Origin: Escherichia coli
GTDB taxonomy: Bacteria; Pseudomonadota; Gammaproteobacteria; Enterobacterales; Enterobacteriaceae
Length of the DNA stretch: 64,000 nt
Assembly: GCF_001677475.2 (NCBI RefSeq)
Contig: NZ_CP015229.1
Strand: one strand, 5' to 3'
Shown here: one piece after another, positions 17,237 to 17,749 of the stretch
How positions within the stretch are numbered: the first letter of the stretch is position 1
Layout of the letters: every line of letters starts with the position of its first letter
The notes under the pieces: model-generated
Database searches by the model: none
Seen by the model: only the letters and a program-made list of their open reading frames with translations
Told to the model about the DNA's origin: nothing
Translations under genes and position numbers: made by a program

Positions 17237-17749
17237 GTCTTTGTCTTTCTCTCTATCCCGCTGGTACACAGGAGGGTTTCCCCCGACGTCAACACACCTC
17301 ATTCGAGCACGTGGTGGAGGTTCCGGTTGGTGTTGATGCTTTAATTGTATGTCACCGACGTTTCTTCGCCAGTGTAAAAGTATACTTTTTAGCCGCAATA
17401 TTTTTGTCATCTCAGACGATTTTTTATCGCAATCCAGAACGGTATGCGGCTCGATAACGCTGCAATCTTGCGCATCGACGATAACGTTTGCGCATCAATT
17501 GCCTGGTTTTTCATCGTCAAGACAATAAAAGAGAAAAAAGCAGCAAACTTCGGTTGAAAAAGCCGCTATGATCGCCGGATAATCGTTTGCTTTTTTTACC
17601 ACCCGTTTTGTATGCGCGGAGCTAAACGTTTGCTTTTTTGCGACGCACCAATTTGTCGCAAACCTGGAGCAGGAAGATAACGTTTCGCTGGCAGGGGATT
17701 GTCCGCCACGCATCTTGACGAAAATTAAACTCTCAGGGGATGTTTTCTT

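Follow-up and report, generated by a model that had tools for sequence, protein, structure and literature searches.

Organization of the region between soxR and ghxP

We analyzed the region between soxR and ghxP in a 64,000-nucleotide stretch of the Escherichia coli contig NZ_CP015229.1 (hereafter the window, to which all positions refer unless stated otherwise). The soxR gene ends at position 17204 and ghxP starts at position 17750, which leaves a true non-coding gap of 545 bp (17205-17749). In a preliminary description made from the sequence, the interval had been delimited as 17237-17749; the right end of that interval is correct, while the left end omits the first 32 bp of the gap. The ghxP open reading frame encodes a protein of 449 amino acids with 100% identity to GhxP of K-12. 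The interval is present in a single copy and was found in 5420 of 5426 complete E. coli genomes. Compared to K-12 MG1655, six SNPs were observed over positions 17100-17850 (17392, 17436, 17446, 17475, 17648 and 17652), none of which affects the small RNA, promoter hexamers, PurR boxes or RNA stems that are described below.

The claim that about 510 bp of this DNA lack a credible open reading frame holds for the full 545-bp gap. The longest open reading frames in the gap correspond to 88, 72, 62 and 59 amino acids; none of the gap frames has a match in Pfam at E<=1 and none is kept among the relatives. Both the hairpin-capable segments and the A/T tracts that had been noted in the interval were recovered, the former as a perfect 13-bp inverted repeat at 17198-17228 and several others within 17606-17718, and the latter at 17534-17542, 17590-17597 and 17633-17639.

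The small RNA gene sraL (ryjA)

The whole window was scanned against the covariance models of Rfam 15, and a full-length match to RF01408 (sraL) was obtained on the minus strand at 17197-17337, with a score of 153.3 bits (E 1e-34) that exceeds the gathering score of 39 and covers model positions 1-142 of 142. The gene is 141 nt long, with its 5' end at 17337 and a 3' end that extends over the final 8 nt of soxR in antisense orientation. The coordinates are identical to those of the ncRNA ryjA (b4459) in MG1655, and no SNP separates the two sequences. This match and the b4459 annotation bear out the statement in the preliminary description that ryjA is located in this interval in K-12, and the covariance-model scan that it had proposed is the one that returned the full-length gene. 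Since the interval was taken to begin at position 17237, the 3' 40 nt of SraL, including the terminator, had been cut off.

An intrinsic terminator for SraL was identified at 17198-17228 on the minus strand, consisting of a 13-bp stem and a 5-nt loop followed by a U run, and is supported by the terminator scan, the perfect inverted repeat and the minimum free energy (MFE) fold. Because the hairpin straddles the soxR stop codon (17202-17204), it probably ends the transcription of soxR as well, in which case the terminator would be used in both directions. In E. coli USDA-ARS-USMARC-49610, a 149-bp multicopy repeat (L002, 1612-1760) is inserted in this shared terminator at about 17216, with a 22-bp duplication. 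The insertion leaves SraL at full length, and the overlap with soxR is lost. The repeat occurs in 4572 genomes, at a median of 5 places per genome, and at the terminator site in two, possibly three, of the 5426 genomes.

The promoter region of sraL (17341-17412, minus strand) was delineated from the sequence and an alignment of 36 sequences. It contains the -10 hexamer TACAAT (17344-17349) followed by TAA (17341-17343), both of which are conserved across genera, a weak -35-like element, CTGGCG (17367-17372), and an A-rich block further upstream that is conserved out to about 17410-17412. The -10 hexamer with a downstream TAA identifies the promoter as one of the sigma-S type. In Salmonella, the sraL promoter is RpoS-dependent and bound by RpoS in ChIP experiments, and SraL represses the tig mRNA through base pairing (PMC3753932). 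In Salmonella, SraL moreover prevents premature termination in the rho leader (PMC6582626). SraL is associated with ProQ (PMC6315103). A discrete stationary-phase transcript of about 140 nt has been reported in both E. coli and Salmonella. In the window, the sigma-S-type promoter would start SraL at 17337, the hairpin at 17198-17228 would stop transcription, and the RNA would be expected to act in trans by base pairing, as with the tig and rho targets from Salmonella. The gene is the already known and K-12-annotated SraL/RyjA, to which it corresponds in sequence, position, antisense overlap with soxR, terminator and -10/TAA promoter, with no difference in the small RNA itself.

Gene order and a GST-like gene in related genomes

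We used a core pattern of SraL to retrieve the locus from 43 species-representative Enterobacteriaceae genomes. The order soxR-sraL-ghxP is kept in these genomes wherever the sequence covers both flanking genes, and sraL occupies the corresponding position in Salmonella, Enterobacter, Citrobacter, Klebsiella, Trabulsiella and Mangrovibacter. The intergenic length is bimodally distributed: Escherichia, Trabulsiella and some Citrobacter have a short form of about 545-590 bp, and the other genomes a long one of about 1230-1830 bp. The longer version, which is that of most other genera, contains a gene for a GST-like protein of about 222 amino acids between sraL and ghxP, which matches the Pfam GST_N families in the relatives. 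This gene is present in Salmonella, Klebsiella, Enterobacter, Mangrovibacter and Erwinia (e.g., L046, 1486-2154; L047, 1506-2168; L049, 1442-2104; L050, 1568-2230), and absent with no remnant from Escherichia, Trabulsiella, some Citrobacter and Cedecea.

The position that corresponds to the GST-like gene in the window is an unconserved junction at 17413-17460 between two homology blocks (17145-17412 and 17461-17779), which would serve as a spacer. We considered whether E. coli retains traces of the GST-like gene and rejected this, as tblastn returned no match and the two homology blocks abut cleanly. The patchy distribution of the gene suggests repeated clean deletions.

The ghxP promoter and its PurR operators

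A sigma-70 promoter for ghxP is predicted at 17554-17583 on the plus strand from a promoter scan and the alignment, with the -35 hexamer TTGAAA (17554-17559), an 18-bp spacer and the -10 hexamer GATAAT (17578-17583). This is the sole sigma-70-like promoter found in 17100-17850, and it would start the ghxP mRNA at about position 17590, corresponding to 4,278,319 in K-12. Both hexamers are invariant among the approximately 35 aligned taxa, and the spacer is constant in length and variable in sequence. The supplements of Adams 2021, Kim 2012 and Conway 2014 list no measured start for ghxP; the length of the leader and the positions of operators relative to +1 are therefore predictions. The Shine-Dalgarno sequence AGGGGA (17735-17740) and the ATG codon (17750-17752) are located at the end of the gap on the plus strand, and the sequence CAGGGGATGTTTTC in this segment is nearly invariant across taxa. 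The suggestion that the interval is a candidate small RNA or a long 5' UTR applies in both its halves, given SraL on one side and a predicted ghxP leader of about 160 nt on the other.

The other 27 sites in the ChIP-chip data of Cho et al. 2011 were used to derive a weight matrix for PurR, which gave the training sites scores of 12.2-24.9 bits and was applied to the whole 64-kb window (about 128,000 positions). The two highest scores in the window were both obtained upstream of ghxP, and both sites, which score far above chance, are PUR boxes by this matrix; the next-best score elsewhere in the window was 12.4 bits. The best of all sites, O3 (AGCTAAACGTTTGCTT, 17620-17635, plus strand, 19.0 bits), is located within the predicted transcribed leader. 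Its core, TAAACGTTTGC, is near-invariant, with TAATCGTTTGC in a few taxa; the box is kept as far as Erwinia, Cedecea and Mangrovibacter and is missing from ESL0689. The second best, O1 (ACGATAACGTTTGCGC, 17478-17493, plus strand, 18.4 bits), precedes the predicted ghxP start by about 105 bp and is nearly invariant across genera. A PurR-like box, O2 (GGATAATCGTTTGCTT, 17577-17592, plus strand), scored 11.1 bits and ranked seventh in the window. It overlaps both the -10 hexamer and the predicted start and is conserved in all taxa examined, including Erwinia, with the exception of Mangrovibacter. A weak fourth box was found at 17674-17689 on the minus strand (8.3 bits).

Wherever O1 and O2 both score, they are spaced by exactly 99 bp. 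This spacing is shared by E. coli, Salmonella, Cedecea, ESL0689 and Citrobacter sp. JGM124, despite variation in the intervening sequence. In Erwinia, O1 is missing and both O2 and O3 are present. A second promoter over O1 was also considered and rejected, as neither the scan nor inspection by eye revealed an acceptable -10 hexamer.

PurR control of the ghxP promoter is already published. A PurR ChIP-chip region at ryjA/yjcD (4,275,855-4,276,485 in old K-12 coordinates, corresponding to 17103-17733 in the window) was bound only with adenine, and the only PurR motif listed for it is identical to O1 in sequence and position (PMC3159470). Furthermore, ghxP is repressed by adenine or HAP and is a member of the PurR-1 iModulon in the literature. 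The boxes described here resemble the operators of the E. coli purine regulon in that they are 16-bp PUR-box palindromes, include the published O1 and are accompanied by PurR-1 expression. They differ from the known operators in that about 160 bp hold three boxes, along with a weak fourth, that O1 and O2 have the fixed 99-bp spacing, and that the best-scoring candidate, O3 in the predicted leader, is not the box listed in the ChIP study.

With a +1 position near 17590, O3 is located at about +31 to +46 and O2 covers the start together with the -10 hexamer. Downstream PurR operators that serve as roadblocks are known from purB and purR. PurR bound to hypoxanthine or guanine represses the ghxP promoter. 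We propose that O2 blocks the -10 hexamer and the start site, with O3 acting as a similar roadblock and O1 as an upstream auxiliary site. Such a multi-operator layout, with the strongest predicted box in the leader, would refine the map of the regulon.

A conserved fold in the predicted ghxP leader

The alignment of the leaders revealed a structured element at 17606-17718 on the plus strand, which is predicted to fold into a three-way junction within the leader of about 160 nt. The closing helix, P1, is formed by 17610-17619 and 17706-17715 (GUAUGCGCGG pairs with CCACGCAUCU). In P1b, the O3 sequence (17620-17630) pairs with the weak fourth box (17679-17689). The P2 hairpin (17637-17645 with 17654-17662) and the P3 hairpin (17695-17698 with 17702-17705) complete this four-helix model. 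When applied to 30 leaders, RNAalifold found P1 and P2 (17637-17662) unaided, both with compensatory changes. In a MAFFT alignment, 93.3% of the cells are paired, as compared to 35-44% in controls with slid partners. Double changes are seen in 12 pairs, as compared to 1-6 in these controls. The observed values were reached by none of 500 shuffles for three of the five measures, and by 1 and 5 shuffles for the other two.

We built a covariance model, R1, from 31 sequences. It yielded a single match in the 64-kb window (17606-17718, 114.7 bits), and matches that end about 30 nt before the ATG codon of ghxP in 40 of 42 loci. The scores were 102.7 bits in Salmonella, 51 in Citrobacter sp. JGM124, 27 in Cedecea, 27 in Mangrovibacter and 23 in Erwinia typographi. 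In a wider alignment that was fitted to the model, double changes were seen in 18 of the 33 pairs, as compared to 5-12 when slid, and the pairing was 92%, as compared to 34-42%; covarying pairs accounted for 7 of 9 in P1 and 8 of 9 in P2. A duplex search that made no use of the model recovered P1 in six new taxa, with the 3' strand ending 27-37 nt before the ATG, and P1 was obtained in this manner in Salmonella, Cedecea, Erwinia and Mangrovibacter. The element has a wider distribution than SraL, being present in Cedecea, JGM124 and Erwinia typographi, in which no match to sraL was obtained.

The R1 score was 12.7 bits on the minus strand as compared to 113.6 bits on the plus strand. Because this score is low and G-U pairs are frequent, the structure is assigned to the sense strand of ghxP. 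The single-sequence MFE fold of E. coli reproduces the helices, with a stability that is ordinary in comparison to shuffles (z -0.49 for 17590-17765 and z -1.14 for the element alone). Covariation, sense-strand orientation and a fixed position upstream of ghxP together characterize the element as a structured part of the predicted leader. As judged from the covariation, a conserved fold is present upstream of ghxP at about 40 Enterobacteriaceae and Erwinia loci.

A search of 17100-17850 with cmscan against all 4227 Rfam families at E<=10 returned only sraL and chance matches at the terminator, and none in 17338-17749. No report of a leader structure, a riboswitch, CsrA or Hfq for ghxP/yjcD was found in the searchable literature. 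The fold is absent from Rfam 15 and is apparently undescribed. The terminator scan revealed no intrinsic terminator or attenuator on the plus strand of the leader; the O3 palindrome followed by a U-run was considered as a terminator and rejected as too weak.

Taken as a whole, we consider it highly probable (roughly 85%) that the interval is a divergent control region that lies between two known genes, rather than an unexplained gap, and that it comprises SraL, a PurR-controlled ghxP and the leader fold; the part outside SraL amounts to about 410 bp. The leader structure represents a modest novelty, and the small RNA and PurR parts are ordinary.

We also considered whether the interval encodes, in addition to SraL, another small RNA or a small protein; several short open reading frames might speak for this. 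One of these, of 22 amino acids (17612-17680), has first codons that look conserved; these are the O3 box, and the frame is broken at a T-run of 6 versus 7 nucleotides. With its frame not conserved and no match in Pfam, it was rejected. Another, of 26 codons (MRCVDVGGNPPVYQRDREKDKDRKTN, 17222-17302, minus strand), lies within SraL and has no Shine-Dalgarno sequence. The peptide appears conserved because the RNA itself is conserved, yet the AUG codon is not, and with no Pfam match this candidate was rejected too. With no Pfam match for the interval, no second terminator and no other Rfam match in 17100-17850, an additional gene is very improbable.

Possible roles of the leader

The fold most likely adds a post-transcriptional layer to the regulation of ghxP, acting on translation or on the stability of the mRNA. 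Should the leader prove functional, the control of this well-studied purine-salvage transporter would include a post-transcriptional layer that has gone unrecognized.

A different explanation is that, apart from SraL, the interval functions at the DNA level only, through promoters and PurR boxes, and that the fold is a by-product of operator palindromes. O3 and its partner, O4, are indeed inverted repeats of the PurR half-site, compensatory changes in P1b are few (1-2 pairs), the fold of the E. coli leader is no more stable than shuffles, and part of the conservation of the leader (O3, perhaps P1b) could reflect the binding of PurR to DNA. However, P1 and P2 are located outside the PurR boxes, and yet show compensatory changes in 7 of 9 and 8 of 9 pairs, with pairing of only 34-42% in the slid controls. 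Moreover, P1 is recovered without a model and is always 27-37 nt away from the ATG, and the G-U pairs fit the sense RNA strand only. We therefore regard this explanation as unlikely and retain the RNA fold as the preferred reading of the leader.

Within that reading, the fold may be a docking site for a protein or a small RNA. More specifically, the leader could be a platform for CsrA, through GGA motifs, or for an Hfq-dependent small RNA, with control of translation exerted at the Shine-Dalgarno sequence. Most taxa have three GGA-containing motifs, namely ACAAGGAG, which is GCAGGAAG in E. coli (17669-17676), GGAUUG in P3 and CAGGGGAUG at the Shine-Dalgarno sequence; these motifs may resemble the CsrA consensus. 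In addition, an A-rich linker is located upstream of the Shine-Dalgarno sequence. The leader thereby resembles enterobacterial leaders that bind CsrA or small RNAs in its GGA motifs (one of them in the Shine-Dalgarno sequence), A-rich linker and structured upstream domain, and differs from them in that the set of motifs is not fully conserved. The upstream GGA is missing from Cedecea, and the searchable literature contains no link between ghxP/yjcD and CsrA, Hfq or ProQ. Such a platform is conceivable, though rather unlikely.

The leader might also be an undescribed riboswitch for a purine-related metabolite, providing a second, RNA-level control of ghxP besides PurR. A three-way junction closed by the covarying P1, with conserved unpaired stretches, is located about 30 nt upstream of the Shine-Dalgarno sequence of a purine transporter, and a guanine riboswitch is located upstream of pbuG, the homologous gene in Bacillus. 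Both the ghxP element and the purine riboswitch (RF00167) of pbuG, a hypoxanthine/guanine permease gene, form a three-way junction in the 5' leader of a purine transporter of orthologous type, and the similarity is one of context only: there is no match in sequence or structure, the arms of the ghxP element differ in size and layout, and neither the kissing-loop signature nor an expression platform was identified. No match to a riboswitch family in Rfam was obtained at E<=10, including RF00167, ZTP, the PRPP/ppGpp ykkC subtypes and xanthine NMT1. Furthermore, the purine response is already explained by PurR, the conserved nucleotides of the "junction" drift in Escherichia, and neither a terminator nor a clear anti-Shine-Dalgarno expression platform is present. 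A riboswitch is improbable in our estimation; if it were one, a guanine/hypoxanthine transporter would be under the dual control of PurR and RNA in Enterobacteriaceae and Erwiniaceae.

Variation in the leader and alternative pairings

Some conserved features of the leader are weakened in Escherichia. The P2 loop is degenerate, P3 contains a G-G mismatch, and ACAAGGAG is replaced by GCAGGAAG at 17669-17676. The P2 loop (17646-17653) contains CCCC in most genera and in other Escherichia, CACC in the genome studied here and CAGC in K-12, and two of the six SNPs that separate the latter two are located in this loop.

The CCCC of the P2 loop is complementary to the AGGGG of the Shine-Dalgarno sequence (17735-17739) in most genera. 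A pairing between the two was left as speculation; the segments are invariant and show no covariation, and a pseudoknot is beyond the scoring of RNAfold. Codons 6-8 of ghxP (GCGCGUAC, 17765-17772) can pair with the 5' strand of P1 (GUAUGCGC, 17610-17617), and the MFE fold of a longer leader uses a pairing in the codon 6-8 region. This pairing, which is possible in E. coli, shows no covariation because the coding sequence is invariant, and it was not adopted. Finally, the A-rich segment at 17534-17548 is complementary to two copies of GTTTGCTTTTTT; being specific to E. coli and located upstream of the predicted start, this complementarity was considered a coincidence.

The leaders of Klebsiella, Raoultella, Pluralibacter and Pseudocitrobacter contain an extra 45-100 nt just past the predicted start (at about 17595-17600; seen in loci L042, L016, L031, L029, L008, L025, L034, L009 and L045). 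Inspection by eye indicates that the inserted segment may form a strong hairpin, the stem of which differs among species.

Elsewhere in the window, the Rfam scan identified four other matches above the gathering scores: STnc630 at 63552-63717 on the plus strand (178.5 bits), the selenocysteine insertion element SECIS_2 at 37626-37680 on the minus strand (87.1 bits) and two repeat-derived naRNA4 elements, at 24589-24660 on the plus strand and at 57807-57884 on the minus strand.
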